Below, in pieces: positions 3,416 through 47,722 of a DNA stretch of 64,000 bases. The translations under genes and the position numbers were made by a program. Numbering within the stretch: the stretch's first letter is position 1; every line of letters starts with the position of its first letter. The notes under the pieces are model-generated. The model saw only the letters and a list, made by a program, of their open reading frames with translations, made no database searches and was not told the origin of the DNA. Origin of the DNA: a virus; the UHGV virus genome UHGV-0275551; one strand, given 5' to 3'.

Positions 3416-4296
3416 TTAAAGCAAAGACTTACCCAGACTTCAAAGAGTTTGTGAAGGGTTTCATTGCAAATGTAAAGGCTGGTAAGAGATATGATTTTAG
3501 AACATATCAAGAGGCTATTTTACCACTTACCTATAGTTCATATTGGCCTGAAGCTGATATTGCAGAAGTTGAGAAGTTTGACTACAAACCAGACTACAAA
3601 GTTCCATTTAGTGATGAATTGCTTTACAGTGTTGGTGCACAGATGAGAACTGCTGATTTCTTCATGGACTTACAATATGCAATTATCAATGGTAAAGACG
3701 TTGATACAGTTTATTGTGAATGGCTGGCAAGAGTTAAACCATTCTCAATGCTGAATGCTAAGTTGAAGGATGCTATCAAGCCACCAGCAATCACTCAGCA
3801 ACCAACCAATCAAACAGTAAATGAAGGTGGCACACTTACTCTAAGCATTCTAGCAACTAACGCCACTGGATATCAGTGGAAGAAGGATGGTGAGGACATC
3901 CCTAGTGCCAATTCTGCAACTTACACAAAACAGTCAGTAGCACCTTCTGACGCTGGTTCATACACTTGTGTTGTATCTGGAGAGGGTGGAACAAGTATTA
4001 CCTCAGATGCGGCAACAGTTACTGTCAACGCACTTCCGGTAATCACTCAACAGCCAACCAATCAAGAAATCACTGAAGGTGAGACTTTAACACTGAATGT
4101 TGTGGCAACAGGTGCAACAGGTTACCAGTGGAAGAAAGGTGAGGAAGACATCCCCGATGCAACTACTGCAACTTACACCAAAGAAGGTGCAACCACTGCT
4201 GATGCAGGAAGCTACACCTGTGTAGTTACTGGTGCAGGTGGCTCTGTAACATCTAATGCAGCAACAGTTACAGTTAACCCAGCAGGGGAGGCATAA
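3412..4296 (+). CDS. protein with two C-terminal Ig-like (I-set-like) tandem domains
   Basis: Two ~95-aa repeats with TQQPTNQ...TLTL...GYQWKK...ATYTK...DAGSYTCVV...ATVTVN. Confidence 0.65.
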   Translation: MIKAKTYPDFKEFVKGFIANVKAGKRYDFRTYQEAILPLTYSSYWPEADIAEVEKFDYKPDYKVPFSDELLYSVGAQMRTADFFMDLQYAIINGKDVDTVYCEWLARVKPFSMLNAKLKDAIKPPAITQQPTNQTVNEGGTLTLSILATNATGYQWKKDGEDIPSANSATYTKQSVAPSDAGSYTCVVSGEGGTSITSDAATVTVNALPVITQQPTNQEITEGETLTLNVVATGATGYQWKKGEEDIPDATTATYTKEGATTADAGSYTCVVTGAGGSVTSNAATVTVNPAGEA

Positions 4297-6830: not shown

Positions 6831-6902
6831 AATATTGACTATAATGGGAGCTATCGAGAGGTAGTTCCCTTTTTAGCTTCTTAAGAAGATGCGTGGTGAA
6901 AA

Positions 6903-9455: not shown

Positions 9456-10104
9456 ATAAAATTTTATCGGTTGTCCCAACCTCTGGGTCACCATCATATG
9501 TGAATAAAATATCTATCCTTCTTAACAACCTCCTTAGTCTTACTCTCTATATAGTTATATAGTACTATATAGTATCTTAGTAACTATCTAGTGGTCTTAA
9601 TAGCCCCCCTGTATAAGCCTTCTAACTAGCCCTTTAATAAGCCCTCTAAACACTCTTCTAACAAGCCTTCTTAACAACCTATACAATCACCTTAACCATC
9701 TCTCTATACCCTCTTAGAAGCTCCTATACACCTCTTAATCTCTATGTCAGCTATGATACCCTCTATAGATGTTCACTAGGTACTACTAAGCCTCTATATA
9801 GACTGTTTTAACAAACTTAACAGGAATATCTTCACAGACCTTATCTCACAAGGTCTAACACGGTACTAACAAGGTATCTTATAAGCCTGTTTCTACCTGT
9901 ATTTTTAAAAGACTGTATAGGTAATTATTCAGAATTTTAAAATTTTTATAAAATAAGACTATCAAGTCATTTTTTAGGGTCTTTGAAGGAACTCAAAAAT
10001 ATCTGTAGAAGATGTATATCTGCTTGGTAGCCCTTAACAACTCCCTTACAAGTACTTTGCAAAATTTTAAAATATCCTTAACAATCTCTTAACAGTTCTC
10101 ACAA

Positions 10105-10176
10105 GCTCTTAACAACTCTTCAAAGCTCTTAACAACTCTTCAAAGCTCTTAACAACTCTTCAAAGCTCTTAACAGA
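10105..10176. repeat. perfect 20-bp tandem repeat (GCTCTTAACAACTCTTCAAA) x3 plus a partial fourth copy
   Basis: Read directly at 10105-10124, 10125-10144, 10145-10164. Confidence 0.9.
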
Positions 10177-11058
10177 TTCTTAACAGAACTAACAAGGATG
10201 TAACAGTTTCTTAACAGTTGATACATAGGCTTTACAGAATCTTAACAGATGACTAACAAGAGCTAACAAGTTAATTTTTAAGAGTTATTTTGTAGGGATA
10301 ATTAACAAGTTCCTAACAAGTGTTTAATCTTTTTAACAAGCTATTAACATGGTCACTATCTCTTTTCTTATCGTTCCCTTTCCCTCTTAGTGATTCTCTA
10401 AATAGCCCTCTTAAAAGCTCTCTATAGCTCCTTGTAAGCTCTTTTAAGTCTCTTCCTAGTAATTACACCCCAACTATACAGACACCTCTTTATAGGGCTT
10501 TACAGAGGCTTTAAAGGCTATGCTAAAGACTCTTACAAGGCTTTTACGTGGTCTTAACAGAGATTTAACAAGGGGCTAACAAGTCTCTAACAAGTGCCTT
10601 AAAAGCATAACTATGTAGGGATTGTTAAGAAATTGTTAAGAAAATGTTAAGGGGGCTAGCATTTACGTAACTTTATAGCCTCTTTTACGTAACTTTTGAG
10701 TAACTTTATAGCCCCTATAACATACTTTAAAGGAACTACCAAGCCCTTTTTAGTAGTTCACAAGAATACTAACGAGATGATAAAGCTTACACCCTTATAA
10801 GATTCTTCTAAGGCTCTGGGAAGCTCTATAAAGGGCTTTTTAGAGTGGGTTAATATGATTGCTTAAGTTAGGTTGATAAGGCTGTTATAGAGCGTTATAG
10901 AGCGTTTAAGGGGTTGCCCTTCCCTTTCGGGTTATGGGCTTATATTTAAGTTGATTTGATAAAAGGTTATAGAGTAGACTATAGAGTTATTGCTTTTAAG
11001 GTCTGATAAGATTCTGGAAAGGGAAGGGAAAGGGTTGTATAAGGATTTGATAGACGTA

Positions 11059-11118: not shown

Positions 11119-11367
11119 TTAGTTGTAGCCTTGTTTGCTGTAGTATAGAGAGACAATCAAGTCACCCCAATAATGGTAGTGAGATTCCTCGTTTATGGCT
11201 TCTTTTACGGCATCTTTCCAGAAGTCATCAGTAGGGTTATAATCTGGTATCACCTGCTGAATCAGCATTTTGATAAGGTCAAAGGTGTTATCTGTTCCAC
11301 CGATATCGAATTTTGCATCAAGTTTGTGGCAGCCATAAGCATTAACAGTTACGCGGATAGTTGACAT
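11119..11367 (-). CDS. hypothetical protein
   Basis: 82-aa ORF immediately downstream of a type-A cassette. Confidence 0.55.
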   Translation of the reverse strand: MSTIRVTVNAYGCHKLDAKFDIGGTDNTFDLIKMLIQQVIPDYNPTDDFWKDAVKEAINEESHYHYWGDLIVSLYYSKQGYN

Positions 11368-11434
11368 AATTTAGATTCTCCAGTTTAGGACTTTGTTTAG
11401 TGGGAAGGTCATTCCCTCCCCGTTGATTAGTAAT
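11368..11434 (-). promoter_or_regulatory. type-A promoter/leader cassette
   Basis: TTGCAA-N17-TAAATT, leader hairpin (GGGGAGGGAATGACCTTCCCC family), SD, then ATG. Confidence 0.6.
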
Positions 11435-11698
11435 TTACTGCATATTGGCGTAGGTTGCAAGCCTTTTTTCGTTGTATTTTGTCAGAATTTCACAAGATAG
11501 AACATCGTACATTGTAACCGCTTTGCTTTTGTCGAGGTCAAAAAAGCCAAATGCTTTACCATCTTTGAATCCGACAACTTCGTAAGATTCTTTAATGATT
11601 TCACCATTGAACAAATCACTTTCGATACGGTGAAACAACGCTACGTCTTCTTTGTTAGTTGCAATCTGCAATAGTGTGGTTAATTCTACGTGTTCCAT
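11435..11698 (-). CDS. hypothetical protein
   Basis: Track ORF runs in-frame through the cassette; likely start is the ATG right after the conserved SD (MEHVELTT...). Confidence 0.55.
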   Translation of the reverse strand: MEHVELTTLLQIATNKEDVALFHRIESDLFNGEIIKESYEVVGFKDGKAFGFFDLDKSKAVTMYDVLSCEILTKYNEKRLATYANMQ

Positions 11699-11800
11699 TT
11701 TTGAATCTCCTAGTTTAAGGACTTTACTTAGTGGGAAGGTTAATCCCTCCCCGTTGATTGACAATTTACAGACTTTTGATTGTCTCGTCAATATCTTTTT
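11699..11800 (-). promoter_or_regulatory. type-A promoter/leader cassette
   Basis: TTGACG-N17-TAAATT; leader hairpin; SD TAGGAG. Confidence 0.6.
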
Positions 11801-12296
11801 CAATATCTTTTAAAGTTTTTTCTAAGTTCTTGATATTGAAGGATAAGCCTTCACCGAGAGTCTTAGAATAACCGCTAGGACGTAAATCATAAAGGCAAAT
11901 TTGTTCTACATTGGAGAGGTTGACCATTTCACCGCTTACATCATAAGCTATTGATACGGTGTTTTCAGGGGCTTTATAGAACTTGTTAAGATTCTTGATA
12001 GAACGTTCATAAGCCATTTTATAACCATTTAAAAGGTCTTTAACGTGGTTGCGAACGTTTTTACACTCATCTAAGTAAATACCTAAGAATAGCGGTAACA
12101 GTTCTGCTACAGCTTGCATAAAGTGAGATACTACAACAGTAGAAACATTACGACGATGTATATAATAAGCCCCGTTTTCTGATTTAGTGATAGTTGCAAA
12201 GTGTACACCGTTGCAACGAAATTCGAAGGTATCTTTAACGGGTTTAGTCATAACGTTAGATGAGCGAATGTAGTTGATAGCTTGAAACTTGTTCAT
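11766..12296 (-). CDS. hypothetical protein
   Basis: 176-aa ORF starting right after a type-A cassette. Confidence 0.6.
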   Translation of the reverse strand: MNKFQAINYIRSSNVMTKPVKDTFEFRCNGVHFATITKSENGAYYIHRRNVSTVVVSHFMQAVAELLPLFLGIYLDECKNVRNHVKDLLNGYKMAYERSIKNLNKFYKAPENTVSIAYDVSGEMVNLSNVEQICLYDLRPSGYSKTLGEGLSFNIKNLEKTLKDIEKDIDETIKSL

Positions 12297-12400
12297 TTTG
12301 AATCTCCTAGTTTAAGGACTTTACTTAGTGGGGAAGGTCATTCCCTCCCCGTTGATTAGTACTATACTTGTTTTGATTTGCCTTTGCAAGCAATTTTTAA
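12297..12400 (-). promoter_or_regulatory. type-A promoter/leader cassette
   Basis: TTGCAA-N17-TATAGT; leader hairpin; SD. Confidence 0.55.
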
Positions 12401-12516
12401 GTTTATCTATAAAGAATCTATTAAGTGAATCCCTTTTAGATAACCCCCTCGAACAAAGTTACCAATGTCAATGGGTATTGTCAACACTTTTTTAAAAGTT
12501 TTTTGTAAGTTATTGA

Positions 12517-12858
12517 TTAACTTATGAATATTTTTTCAGGCTTTACATAGCTGATACGCTGACTTTTTAGCAGGTCATCCCAGATTAAAGCGGCAATATG
12601 TGCATAACCGGATTCACGTAAAAGCTTCATTGTTTTACTTCTCGTTTCAAAACGGCTTGCGTAGTATTCACTGTTCAAGGTCGTTTTATTCCCTTCGTTA
12701 TCTGTATGGATGATTTGCATCACTTGAAAGGGGCTTACACCCTCGCCTTTGTTCCACTGTTCAAAGTATTTTAGGCACTGCATAGGTGACATCTTATCAC
12801 TTACTTGAGTTGACCAAGATGAGCCAGCTTTATCGGTAATTACGGTTACATAAGCCAT
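12517..12858 (-). CDS. hypothetical protein
   Basis: 113-aa ORF after a type-B cassette. Confidence 0.6.
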   Translation of the reverse strand: MAYVTVITDKAGSSWSTQVSDKMSPMQCLKYFEQWNKGEGVSPFQVMQIIHTDNEGNKTTLNSEYYASRFETRSKTMKLLRESGYAHIAALIWDDLLKSQRISYVKPEKIFIS

Positions 12859-12943
12859 TTTAGAATCTCCAGTTTAGGATTTAGTGGTAAAGCTCTTTAT
12901 CTGGGGCTTACTATACAGACTAATAAGCCCCATGTAAAGTACT
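12859..12943 (-). promoter_or_regulatory. type-B promoter cassette
   Basis: TTTACA-N17-TATAGT with inverted repeat GGGGCTTA/TAAGCCCC flanking the -10; conserved leader; SD GGAG. Confidence 0.6.
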
Positions 12944-13192
12944 TTAAGCGTCTTTATATTCTATCTCTGTGCACTCACCTTTTACTAGCTCAAAGGTCCA
13001 AATAATTCGTTTATACTCAATCACTACTACAGTAACAAGGTCAGTCCTCTTCTCATTGGTTTTAAAGTCTATTGTGTGGGTATACTCATAACTAGTCTTA
13101 TCCTTAATTTCCCCGTAGCGTCTACACTCTTTATAGACTTCATCCATTAAGCCATTGCTAACCATGTTTTTTAGTTGAGTTTTAGTATACAT
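12944..13192 (-). CDS. hypothetical protein
   Basis: 82-aa ORF after a type-A cassette. Confidence 0.55.
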   Translation of the reverse strand: MYTKTQLKNMVSNGLMDEVYKECRRYGEIKDKTSYEYTHTIDFKTNEKRTDLVTVVVIEYKRIIWTFELVKGECTEIEYKDA

Positions 13193-13285
13193 TTTTTGGA
13201 ATCTCCTAGTTTAAGGACTTTACTTAGTGGGGAAGGTCATTCCCTCCCCGTTGATTGATAATTTACAGACTTTTATCAGGCTTGT
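13193..13285 (-). promoter_or_regulatory. type-A promoter/leader cassette
   Basis: TAGACA-N17-TAAATT; leader hairpin; SD. Confidence 0.55.
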
Positions 13286-13519
13286 CTAGTCTTTTTCAAT
13301 GATAATTTCATATTGACCATCGACACTGTCGAAATAGATTCCTTCGTCATCTTCTGTCTTAAAGTAACATTGTATATCATCACTGGCGGGGTAGTCTTGT
13401 CTTGCTATCTGGCAAACTTGAATAGCATTTTCTTTACTTCCTGTAAACTCTTCAAGCCCTTTAAAGTCACATGAATGGCCGTTACAAATGGAAAGGATGA
13501 GATAAATGGTTGTAAGCAT
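13286..13519 (-). CDS. hypothetical protein
   Basis: 77-aa ORF; preceded by hairpin CCCCT-gtaa-AGGGG plus U-run rather than a typed cassette. Confidence 0.5.
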   Translation of the reverse strand: MLTTIYLILSICNGHSCDFKGLEEFTGSKENAIQVCQIARQDYPASDDIQCYFKTEDDEGIYFDSVDGQYEIIIEKD

Positions 13520-13585
13520 GATTTAAGCCCTCTAAAAGCCCCTGTAAGGGGTTAATCAGTGTTTATAAGGTGAATGTATAGGTTT

Positions 13586-14128
13586 TTAGAAAAAGACCTT
13601 TAAATCACTCTCTACAATGTTTTCTGTCAGTGTATCCATGATGTCACAAAAAACCTGAATACTGTCGGATTGTTGGATACTTTTAGCAAGTAGCTCCAAT
13701 GTTTCATCAAGATAATTTAAATTTGGGTTATCCAGTGAAGGGAGACAAAAAGGTGAATACATAGCGTTGAACTCTGTTGTATAGACCTTTTTAATCCAAT
13801 TTACATCAAAGTACTCTGTAAAGCTTGCTATATTTGACACGTTATCACAAGAATAATCATCATTTAGCTCATCCTCTGGAATGTCAAGTTCTAAGATAAC
13901 AATATTTTGAGTTTTCATCTGAAAAGCTGCCGTGATAGTGGCATTTCCTAGAGCTTGCTGGATACCTTCCGATGCTATCTCTTCCTCATCATCACCATAG
14001 AGTTTATTTTCTGGGTACACGTAAAAATTGCCGTCCATATCCGAACAATTCCATACACCTGATGGTTTATCACCGTTATTAATCAGGTTGATAAAGTTTT
14101 CTTGAGTAGTACCGTGAAAGCATTTCAT
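13586..14128 (-). CDS. hypothetical protein
   Basis: 180-aa ORF after a type-B cassette. Confidence 0.6.
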   Translation of the reverse strand: MKCFHGTTQENFINLINNGDKPSGVWNCSDMDGNFYVYPENKLYGDDEEEIASEGIQQALGNATITAAFQMKTQNIVILELDIPEDELNDDYSCDNVSNIASFTEYFDVNWIKKVYTTEFNAMYSPFCLPSLDNPNLNYLDETLELLAKSIQQSDSIQVFCDIMDTLTENIVESDLKVFF

Positions 14129-14221
14129 TTTGAATCTCCTAGTTTAAGGATTTAGTGGTAAAGCTCTTTATCTGGGGCTTACTTTATCGAACTATAAGCC
14201 CCTTGTAAAGTACTTTATCAG
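14129..14221 (-). promoter_or_regulatory. type-B promoter cassette
   Basis: TTTACA-N17-TAAAGT; inverted repeat GGGGCTTA/TAAGCCCC; SD. Confidence 0.6.
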
Positions 14222-14419
14222 TTAATTTTTGACAACTTTTAAAACTGCAAGATAACCTAAGCAATAAGAATCACCGAAGAGAGTTCTACCCATGAAAGAA
14301 TCATCTTTGATATCCTTTGCAGTGACTGTTTTTTCTACGCCGTGGGAAAGAACTACATCACCAACTTTAATGTCTTTGATGTGCGTGGTTTCAATGGTTA
14401 AACCGTTGATAATAGCCAT
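14222..14419 (-). CDS. hypothetical protein
   Basis: 65-aa ORF after a type-A cassette. Confidence 0.5.
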   Translation of the reverse strand: MAIINGLTIETTHIKDIKVGDVVLSHGVEKTVTAKDIKDDSFMGRTLFGDSYCLGYLAVLKVVKN

Positions 14420-14520
14420 TTTGAATCTCCTAGTTTAAGGACTTTACTTAGTGGGGAAGGTCATTCCCTCCCCGTTGATGTGTAATTTAATCTATCTAAA
14501 AATCAGTGTCAATAAAATTT
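14420..14520 (-). promoter_or_regulatory. type-A promoter/leader cassette
   Basis: TTGACA-N17-TAAATT; leader hairpin; SD; about 95 nt near-identical to 15284-15372. Confidence 0.65.
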
Positions 14521-14925
14521 TTAGAGTTCTGCATAAATTGCGTCGCAGATGTCACGAAAGTCATGATTTGCCAAATTACGTTGTAACCAAGTGGCAAAGA
14601 AATCAGCGATTGCAAAATTAGCATCATACTCAACAGATAGCCACACTTTCACGGCAAATCTAAACATTTTCAAGTCTAACTCTTTATTCATTACCTTAGA
14701 TTTGCCTAACATGTCGACCATTTCATATTGTGCACCGTCTAGCGTGATACCTGCTGCAACGTCAGCCAATGAGTTTTTTACGTTTTCAACGTCTAAGATA
14801 ACGCTTTGAATCTTTCCGATAATGTTGTGCAATGTTTCATCCGGTGCTGATGATGTAATAACATTGATTCGATTAACGGTTAAACGTGCTTTTAAGATTG
14901 ACAACTCACGATTATTAATAGCCAT
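14521..14925 (-). CDS. hypothetical protein
   Basis: 134-aa ORF after a type-B cassette. Confidence 0.6.
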   Translation of the reverse strand: MAINNRELSILKARLTVNRINVITSSAPDETLHNIIGKIQSVILDVENVKNSLADVAAGITLDGAQYEMVDMLGKSKVMNKELDLKMFRFAVKVWLSVEYDANFAIADFFATWLQRNLANHDFRDICDAIYAEL

Positions 14926-15010
14926 TTTAGAATCTCCAATTTAGGATTGAGTGGTAAAGCTCTTTATCTGGGGCTTACTGTACAGACTTATAAGCCCCCT
15001 GTAAAGTACT
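14926..15010 (-). promoter_or_regulatory. type-B promoter cassette
   Basis: TTTACA-N17-TACAGT; inverted repeat; SD. Confidence 0.6.
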
Positions 15011-15283
15011 TTATACTAAGTGCAATTTTTTACCTTTTACTATAATGTAACTCGATGTGCTATTGCTGCAAACATCCTGATAAATTCTGCGCAAACGTCC
15101 TTCATAGTATACTTTCCAGCTAGTTGGAATCTTTTTGCCGTATCCGGTAGCAGTTTTTTGGAGTCCTGCGAATTGCCAATCTAAGATATGTTGCTCAGCC
15201 TGTAAATCCTCAAAGTGCATCACACCGTCTACATAGTGACGTAGAGTGACATTTAAAGTGAGACCGTTGTTAGTAGTATACAT
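15011..15283 (-). CDS. hypothetical protein
   Basis: 90-aa ORF after a type-A cassette. Confidence 0.55.
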   Translation of the reverse strand: MYTTNNGLTLNVTLRHYVDGVMHFEDLQAEQHILDWQFAGLQKTATGYGKKIPTSWKVYYEGRLRRIYQDVCSNSTSSYIIVKGKKLHLV

Positions 15284-15372
15284 TTTAGAATCTCCTAGTT
15301 TAAGGACTTTATTTAGTAGGGTGGTTATTGCCTCCCCGTTGATGTGTAATTTAATCTATCTAAAAACCAGTG
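15284..15372 (-). promoter_or_regulatory. type-A promoter/leader cassette
   Basis: TTGACA-N17-TAAATT; variant leader hairpin; SD. Confidence 0.65.
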
Positions 15373-15705
15373 TCAACAGTTTTGTTTTCGTTTGCTCAAC
15401 TCTTGAACAATTACAGTATGATAGTCTTTTAAGTCACTAATATTTAAAGCATTTATCAGAGAATTATAATCATCGACTAATTGAAAATCATCTTTGAAAA
15501 TGTCGCTGATTTGATAAGCTCTCGCCCTGAATCTGAAGCTCATTTCTAACCGCTTTAATTGTTCATCGCTCAACCGCTCTAGAAAGCTCATTACAAGGCT
15601 ATTGCTAACCTGTTGTGTGATTGCCTTATTTGCTAGATTATAGGCTTTATATGCCTTATAGAGCGCGAAAATGGCAATGATTGCAGTGATACCAGTCATT
15701 AACAT
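15373..15705 (-). CDS. hypothetical membrane-anchored protein
   Basis: 110-aa ORF, hydrophobic N-terminus, SD AGGAAG; overlaps upstream gene. Confidence 0.55.
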   Translation of the reverse strand: MLMTGITAIIAIFALYKAYKAYNLANKAITQQVSNSLVMSFLERLSDEQLKRLEMSFRFRARAYQISDIFKDDFQLVDDYNSLINALNISDLKDYHTVIVQELSKRKQNC

Positions 15706-15995
15706 GGTGCTTCCTCTTTACGTGACACTTTGCCATTTACAGTTATCTCATAAGAATCTAGTAAATCGCTTTTAGATTTGACAGGACTTTTAAGAGTATC
15801 ATCATAGATATTGACTTGCAATACAGGTTTTTTATACTCCCTGCAACTATTCCATAAGCAAATCACTACACGACGACCTTTTATTTTGCCGTGTAACCAT
15901 TCCATAACATCATGGCTATTTCTTGATGTTTCAATGAAATCAATTTTGTTGAGTAATTTGCTTAGATTTTCACGAACTTTATTTGATAATTTCAT
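15699..15995 (-). CDS. hypothetical protein
   Basis: 98-aa ORF after a type-B cassette. Confidence 0.55.
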   Translation of the reverse strand: MKLSNKVRENLSKLLNKIDFIETSRNSHDVMEWLHGKIKGRRVVICLWNSCREYKKPVLQVNIYDDTLKSPVKSKSDLLDSYEITVNGKVSRKEEAPC

Positions 15996-16083
15996 TTTTG
16001 AATCTCCAGTTTAGGATTGAGTGGTAAAGCTCTTTATCTGGGGCTTAAGATACCAACTTTTAAGCCCCTTGTAAAGTACTTTA
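15996..16083 (-). promoter_or_regulatory. type-B promoter cassette
   Basis: TTTACA-N17-TATCTT; inverted repeat; SD. Confidence 0.55.
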
Positions 16084-16373
16084 TCAGTTAATTTTCAGCT
16101 TTGCATAACCTCTCATTGTACGAATTGGAGATGTTAAGGCTACGCGTCTAATATATGCCTTTTTTGTGTATACATTTGTCTTTCCGATAGTGTTTACACA
16201 TGTAAAAAGATTTATTGGTGAATTTTTTAACTTCAACTGTTTATCAGCCTTCACACCCCATCTTACAGCAGATTGTTTTCCGTTGTCAACCACTTTCCCG
16301 CCTAACTTTTCGCTATGATGCGAGCGTCATCACGAGTTTTTACAGGAATTACAACGTTTTTGATAGTAGCCAT
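16084..16373 (-). pseudogene. small ORF interrupted by an apparent -1 frameshift in a 4-nt homopolymer (possible sequencing error or pseudogene)
   Basis: ATG at 16373 after the cassette SD opens a 23-codon frame ending at TAG 16302-16304; the 69-aa track ORF 16084-16293 is open in the -1 frame back to 16326; one extra A in the run at 16307-16310 would fuse them. Confidence 0.4.
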
Positions 16374-16461
16374 TTTTGAATCTCCAATTTAGGATTTAGT
16401 GGTAAAGCTCTTTATCTGGGGCTTACTTTATCGAACTATAAGCCCCTTGTAAAGTACTTTA
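16374..16461 (-). promoter_or_regulatory. type-B promoter cassette
   Basis: Identical in its core to the 14129-14221 copy. Confidence 0.6.
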
Positions 16462-16842
16462 TCAGTTAATTTTGAAGATTGTTACATAACCATCACTACC
16501 GATGATTTGAGACACTCCAGCTTTTTCTACTTGATAGCCCATATTTTCAAGATGATAAACAGCATCATCGTAACCATATGCGCCACCCTGATAACGTCTC
16601 TTATCGCATCTTATCAGGTTTTTACCACGTCCAGCAAGTGCATGTAAAATGGCTTTTTCGCTTGAAAGAGTACCATCTAGCATTGTCGCCGTGTAATGGT
16701 TGATTTTATTCCCATTGATATCATACTTAAAATTAAACGAGTGAACAACAATAACGTTACCTTTAAAATTCTCATCAAGTGACTTCTCCAGTGCGTTGCG
16801 AAAGTTGTCTTTGTTGATGAATTTAGGTGCACGGTATGCCAT
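16462..16842 (-). CDS. hypothetical protein
   Basis: 126-aa ORF after a type-A cassette. Confidence 0.6.
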   Translation of the reverse strand: MAYRAPKFINKDNFRNALEKSLDENFKGNVIVVHSFNFKYDINGNKINHYTATMLDGTLSSEKAILHALAGRGKNLIRCDKRRYQGGAYGYDDAVYHLENMGYQVEKAGVSQIIGSDGYVTIFKIN

Positions 16843-16960
16843 TTTGAATCTCCAGTTTAGGACTTTATTTAGTGGGGAAGGTCATTACCTCCCCGTTGAT
16901 GCAAATACTAGATAACCCCGTTCAAAGAGTCAAGAAAAATTTTAAAAATATTTTTGGAAA
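16843..16960 (-). promoter_or_regulatory. type-A promoter/leader cassette (first of the cluster)
   Basis: TTGACT-N17-TAGTAT; leader hairpin; SD. Confidence 0.55.
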
Positions 16961-47550: not shown

Positions 47551-47722
47551 GTAAGCCTCTTTTAAGTAACTATTAAGTTTTAATCTTTTATCTTAACGTA
47601 TTCTATACGTTATACTTTAAAGCTTTTTAAAAGCTATTAAATAATCTTTTAAGAGTTTTAAAGTATCTGTATAGTTAAACTGTTAAGTAACCTTTTAAGT
47701 AAAACCCACTTCGCAAAGATTA

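Follow-up and report, generated by a model that had tools for sequence, protein, structure and literature searches.

A missing base splits the wV8 gp015 ortholog of a Felix O1-like phage into two reading frames

Layout of the split gene

The window (the whole 64,000-nucleotide stretch of UHGV virus genome UHGV-0275551 that was analysed) comes from a Felix O1-like (wV8-like) myovirus of the genus Felixounavirus. The Escherichia phage wV8 is ∼98% identical to the window, and between positions 14000 and 19000 the identity reaches 98.3% with wV8 and also with several O157 typing phages. The closest GenBank phage records share 97.5-98.3% identity with the window, and none exceeds ∼98% over long stretches. 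The minus strand is the coding strand of the genes in this part of the window. The locus consists of a small gene in two pieces, with one copy of a repeated 103-nt cassette on each side:

16371..16473, minus strand: upstream copy of the 103-nt cassette (‘type B’), 90% identical to the reference copy
16302..16373, minus strand: 5′ fragment, with ATG at 16373-16371, 23 sense codons (MATIKNVVIPVKTRDDARIIAKS) and a premature TAG at 16304-16302
16307..16310, minus strand: lesion, AAAA in the gene (TTTT on the plus strand), where relatives have five As (A5)
16084..16293, minus strand: 3′ fragment in the -1 frame, with GTG at 16293, 69 codons and a stop at 16086-16084; corresponds to residues 28-96
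15993..16095, minus strand: downstream copy of the 103-nt cassette, used as the reference copy, which serves the next gene (ATG 15995)

A preliminary description of this DNA held that the cassette-preceded ORF stops early, after 23 codons, that the -1 frame holds the remaining 69-aa ORF, and that the two would be joined into a protein of ∼95 aa if the run at 16307-16310 were longer by a single A. All three statements hold, with the joined product being 96 aa long. The ORF that begins at ATG 16373 ends at TAG 16304-16302 and encodes residues 1-22 of the family protein followed by one out-of-frame Ser. When translation is instead begun one base upstream of the ATG, at 16374, it reads through continuously (...EKLGGKVVDNG...KLKIN, then the stop). 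The open part of the -1 frame begins only at about codon 17.

Pairwise alignment of the window with wV8 over 332 nt shows three substitutions and one 1-nt gap. The gap falls where wV8 reads GCG AAAAA G and the window reads GCG AAAA G, so that exactly one A is missing; in the intact gene this site comprises codons Lys22-Lys23 (GCG AAA AAG). Adding one A to the run at 16307-16310 yields a single 96-aa protein, and the alignment with wV8 reveals no secondary lesions in either fragment.

A disrupted member of a conserved family

The broken gene is the ortholog of wV8 gp015 (YP_002922796.1, 96 aa, NC_012749 8627-8917). The equivalent locus in wV8 is a single 96-aa ORF that is annotated between the direct repeats DR_1/DR_7/DR_9. 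Along with wV8 gp015 and its Felixounavirus orthologs, the window has the same locus, flanking genes and DR_1/DR_7/DR_9 cassettes, with 99% nucleotide identity in the region. Synteny is likewise conserved: relatives place 126-aa and 98-aa neighbours (homologs of gp014 and gp016) around the 96-aa gene, with cassettes on both sides. The difference lies in the A run. wV8 gp015 has A5 at codons 22-23 and one ORF, whereas the window has A4 and an ORF split into 23 + 69 codons.

Profile comparisons place both pieces in one family. The wV8 gp015 protein matches phrog_5089, a PHROG of unknown function, over its full length (E 2.9e-50), and the window protein, once repaired by one base, matches profile positions 1-85 of 85 (E 1.1e-49). 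Left as they are, the 23-aa fragment matches profile positions 1-22 (E 1.8e-8) and the 69-aa fragment matches positions 29-85 (E 5.4e-32). Because the two pieces match successive parts of one profile, they are not a chance pairing of ORFs. The phrog_5089/wV8 gp015 family is characterized by a single uninterrupted ORF; with its two frames, the window carries a disrupted allele of the family.

Among the 96-aa orthologs dN/dS is 0.07-0.19, indicating that the intact frame is under purifying selection. An alignment of homologs shows the strongest conservation of the phrog_5089/gp015 family in the N-terminal 45 residues. The break falls in a predicted helix (residues 14-24), the first helix in a low-confidence AlphaFold2 model (37 homologs, pLDDT 56.8). 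Searches with the gp015-type protein returned only a sub-threshold BRCT match in Pfam (E 0.064), only families of unknown function in PHROGs, and no match below E 0.37 in a profile search of PDB sequences. Similarly, a Foldseek comparison of the AlphaFold2 model (pLDDT 56.8) with BFVD gave no match below E 0.05.

The family alignment (P0001-P0038) also contains two length forms, of 96 aa (...AYIRRVALTSPIRTMRGYAKLKIN) and 85 aa (...GYKMHLSLTGNLI), which differ only in their C-terminal tail. The first ∼75 residues are common to both forms, the first 45 most strongly. The presence of two C-terminal tails on a common N-terminal part suggests that modular exchange may have occurred within the gene.

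Distribution of the A5 and A4 alleles

The two alleles were counted in three data sets. These overlap, as the same phages (e.g., wV8) recur in them, and the counts are therefore neither independent nor additive:

IMG/VR loci encoding a relative: A5 in 17/17; A4 in 0 (pattern scan)
GenBank phage records (allele-specific oligo search): A5 46-mer in 85; two A4 45-mers in 0
Public contigs with proteins identical to both flanking genes and the site present: A5 in 17/17; A4 in 0

In the oligo search each 28-nt seed had to span the A run, which prevents cross-matching between the alleles. L113, a contig from the set with identical neighbours, shares with the window the nearby ATA variant, which replaces Met20 of wV8 gp015 with Ile (M20I), yet has A5. 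The pattern scan of IMG/VR found no 4A allele, and an exact look-up of the window's 69-aa product returned no record. A scan of JGI metagenomes for the 4A pattern gave five matches, all of them unrelated chance matches. The two-frame arrangement is thus not conserved, as the gene is in a single frame in the 17 IMG/VR loci, the 85 GenBank records and the 17 contigs with identical neighbours. Because all close relatives examined have A5 and one ORF, A5 is the ancestral state and the window's A4 is a recent change at a tip, produced by deletion of 1 nt.

The same deletion in a second lineage

A protein search identified a sole 69-aa homolog, P0014. This sequence occurs in 33 ENA assembly blocks, from which 24 contigs were read, and its carriers come from at least two differently named assemblies (k141_... 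and ..._METAG-scaffold). At the DNA level, P0014 (ENA metagenome contigs L019 and L020) has the identical lesion, ATG GCG AAAA GTT AGG, and like the window it has a premature TAG and a 69-aa remainder that starts at GTG. The two haplotypes are nonetheless distinct. Over the gene and its cassettes, the P0014 haplotype is 88.9% identical to the window, as against 99.2% to its intact A5 sibling L012. The two alleles also differ in how often they were recovered: the P0014 allele was found in 33 assembly blocks, and the window allele once.

Common ancestry of the two 4A alleles, or recombination between their lineages, was considered and rejected, since each allele has its own intact sibling at ∼99% identity, whereas the two are only 89% identical to each other. 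These different backgrounds, each close to an intact sibling, indicate two independent recent deletions. Moreover, the occurrence of the A5-to-A4 change in a second, widely recovered lineage indicates that the mutation is natural, recurrent and tolerated. A mutational hotspot at the A run is not required to explain the recurrence: about six A/T runs of length 5 or more are present in the gene, giving a chance of ∼1 in 6 that a second event strikes the same run. By the preliminary description, orthologs with the same split as two separate genes would speak against it. The comparison finds the split in one unrelated lineage only (P0014; L019/L020), itself 99% identical to an intact sibling.

Contig L019 also carries, at 1356-1360, a private G-to-T change in the left arm of the inverted repeat of the upstream cassette (ACAGTGGGC; siblings ACAGGGGGC).

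Mutation or base-calling error

The preliminary description offered three causes for the split: a sequencing error, a recent inactivation or slippage-dependent expression. The first two are still live, with the evidence favouring inactivation, and the third is unsupported (see next section). Under the first, the phage would truly have AAAAA and an intact 96-aa gene, one A having been under-called in sequencing or assembly. Several observations speak for such an artefact. Within its own sub-lineage the 4A allele occurs just once, and it is found in 0 GenBank phage records; an error would look alike. Deletion within a homopolymer is a classic type of error, the wV8 reference appears to carry errors of that kind, and neither fragment has acquired a secondary lesion.

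To place the deletion among the other differences between the two genomes, all indels between the window and wV8 were tabulated, and the isolated ones were compared with 17-30 other relatives. At most isolated indels wV8 is the outlier, and the window agrees with most of the other relatives. The wV8 genome was pyrosequenced (PMC2674420). Its outlier sites in NC_012749 (L026/L027), at 4119, 7842, 14621, 15004 and 17016, are homopolymer or short indels, some of them in the gp003 and gp013 coding sequences. Indels confined to wV8 probably reflect either mistakes in its record or changes private to that phage.

About three 1-nt deletions are unique to the window: one at 12394-12398 (T6 to T5), one near 6899 that removes a G, and the one at 16307-16310. 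A further shortening, A5 to A4 at 16842-16845, falls in the spacer between the Shine-Dalgarno (SD) sequence and the ATG of the upstream gene and recurs in L112 alone; another, A5 to A4 at 47701-47704, is shared with one relative. All five one-base shortenings are non-coding in the window, save that at 16307-16310. By comparison, coding sequence holds 78-83% of the A/T runs that are at least 4-5 long, and the probability that at most one of five deletions would fall in coding sequence, if errors were random, is about 0.002-0.007. That the deletions are mostly non-coding although A/T runs are mostly coding fits mutations filtered by selection rather than random errors, and gp015 fits this pattern as its one tolerated coding deletion.

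The surveyed window lacks a general pattern of homopolymer errors. In addition, for most platforms five As are a short run to miscall, and the identical mutation is demonstrably real in the P0014 lineage, where many assemblies contain it. On this evidence we take the deletion to be more probably a biological event than a miscalled base, and consider an under-called A a possible but less likely explanation.

Recoding, slippage and re-initiation

The two ORFs overlap for ∼24 nt, the sole stretch in which a -1 shift could rescue the protein (CGT GAT GAC GCT CGC ATC ATA GCG AAA AGT TAG). The site shares with programmed -1 frameshift sites (E. coli dnaX A AAA AAG; phage tail-chaperone G/GT) the property that a -1 shift in an A run of Lys codons could join overlapping ORFs. 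Unlike dnaX-type sites, however, it has no slippery heptamer, stimulatory structure, upstream SD-like enhancer or conserved two-ORF layout. Within the ∼24-nt overlap there is no X XXY YYZ slippery heptamer; the only candidate, G AAA AGT, is not of that form. A search for a downstream stimulatory hairpin or pseudoknot was likewise negative: beginning at the site, 88 nt have a folding energy of -12.9 kcal/mol (z -0.49), which 55/200 shuffles equal or better.

Transcriptional slippage and phase-variable homopolymers need runs of about 7-9 nt or more. The A4 run is far below lengths that give transcriptional slippage. Contingency loci have a long run that varies frequently in length; here the run is 4 nt (ancestrally 5 nt), and its variation is confined to two tips. 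The locus instead has the features of a pseudogene created by a homopolymer indel: its orthologs are intact and under purifying selection, one indel restores the frame, and the split is not conserved.

The 3′ fragment might be translated on its own. GTG 16293 is preceded at 3 nt by a weak SD-like AGGCGG, and it follows the stop codon (TAG) of the 5′ fragment by 8 nt. The predicted anti-SD duplex at this GTG (-6.2 kcal/mol) is comparable to those of neighbouring genes (-6.0 to -7.3 kcal/mol), with a spacing of 3 nt versus 5-7 nt. Re-initiation at GTG 16293 after the TAG is conceivable, and could give at most a little of an N-terminally truncated 69-aa product. Such a product would lack the invariant residues K12, R14, D15, A17, R18 and A21-K23. 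The region's highest-scoring sigma-70-like site, TTGACA-18-TAAGAT (16289..16260, minus strand; 10/12), lies inside the broken gene just downstream of GTG 16293, cannot drive the 69-aa ORF, and is probably a chance match.

These elements could be taken together as a functional split, in which either a -1 shift at G-AAA-AGU gives the full-length protein, or termination-reinitiation at GTG 16293 gives a purposeful 69-aa product, and the A tract serves as a recurrent switch (e.g., against a host defence that senses the protein). The same tract has indeed been struck independently in two lineages, and the frameshifted lineage is the single sequence most often seen among the homolog clusters (33 contigs). 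If tRNA-Lys slipped by -1 in the P site, from AAA to GAA, ...AKKLGG... would be restored, and GTG 16293, with its SD-like element (-6.2 kcal/mol), lies just 8 nt past the TAG. Nevertheless, we regard a functional split as very improbable. The overlap contains no X XXY YYZ heptamer in its 24 nt, the sequence downstream folds no better than its shuffles (z -0.49), and A4 falls far short of a slippage-prone run length. The arrangement is never conserved, both of its occurrences being tips at least 99% identical to intact siblings. The truncated product would be missing invariant N-terminal residues, and its SD-GTG spacing is just 3 nt. Finally, since the gene has some six A/T runs of at least 5, a double event in the same run is expected by chance ∼1 time in 6.

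Probable loss of an early accessory gene

We favour, with a probability of roughly 0.6, a recent natural loss-of-function (pseudogenising) mutation in a dispensable gene, as opposed to a designed frameshift. The intact gene encodes an accessory protein of 96 aa from the early region of Felix O1-like phages, and it is placed behind its own promoter-like/RBS cassette. With one A lost from the A5 tract (codons 22-23), a ribosome that starts at the usual ATG would stop after 23 codons. This would cut the conserved N-terminal module, which in the predicted fold comprises strand 1 and helix 1, off from the remainder of the protein.

The wide occurrence of the second lineage points to the gp015 ortholog being dispensable under at least some conditions. 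A conserved early accessory gene would then have been lost without stopping the spread of the lineage, and the allele offers a natural knock-out for study of the gene's function. For annotation, the two small ORFs are best treated as one disrupted gene (the wV8 gp015 ortholog), and as neither two genes nor a recoding site. The lesion is an ordinary feature, with one mildly notable point, the independent recurrence of the deletion in another lineage.

That recurrence also admits a more speculative reading, considered very improbable, in which the A5 tract (codons 22-23) is a recurrent off-switch and loss of the N-terminal module, possibly with a re-initiated 69-aa product, is positively selected on some hosts (e.g., as an escape from a defence triggered by the protein). 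If true, it would account both for the identical deletion in two divergent Felixounavirus lineages and for the commonness of the frameshifted one in metagenomes.

Repeated cassettes around the gene

A repeat search found five copies of the 103-nt cassette in 12.8-16.5 kb of the window. Every copy combines TTTACA-N17-TAAAGT or TATCTT (9/12), an 8-bp GC-rich inverted repeat, and a GGAG 8 nt before an ATG. In the upstream copy, a sigma-70-like TTTACA (16453-16448) is separated by a 17-nt spacer from TAAAGT (16430-16425), together matching the consensus at 9/12 positions. In this copy the GC-rich inverted repeat, of 8 bp, is GGGGCTTA/TAAGCCCC (16446-16418), and the Shine-Dalgarno sequence, GGAG at 16385-16382, stands 8 nt before the ATG. 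The downstream copy has a promoter-like TTTACA-17-TATCTT at 16075..16047. Judged by these motifs, the cassettes are putative promoters. A separate cassette, promoter-like site and RBS included, precedes the next gene, so that the frameshift would be expected to have little polar effect.

The genome paper of Felix O1 described a homologous 57-bp direct repeat between early genes and assigned no function to it (Whichard et al. 2010; PMC3185647). The 57-bp direct repeats of Felix O1 are the same repeat as the upstream cassette of the window (CTTTACA..GGGGCTTA..TAAGCCCCAGATAAAGAGCTTTACCACT). In the window this repeat is part of the genomic context and is separate from the lesion.

A second family of intergenic cassettes, with a GGGGAAGGTCATTCCCTCCCC inverted repeat, has copies at 11365, 11696, 12293, 13192, 14416, 15281 and 16856 (window 11365-16901). 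It alternates with the GGGGCTTA...TAAGCCCC family ahead of small early genes. Outside both families, positions 10083-10213 hold ∼8 overlapping tandem repeats of 10/20 nt (AAGCTCTTAACAACTCTTCA-like) that have an iteron-like look, and this stretch matches a part of wV8 free of coding sequences (about 13.9-15.5 kb).
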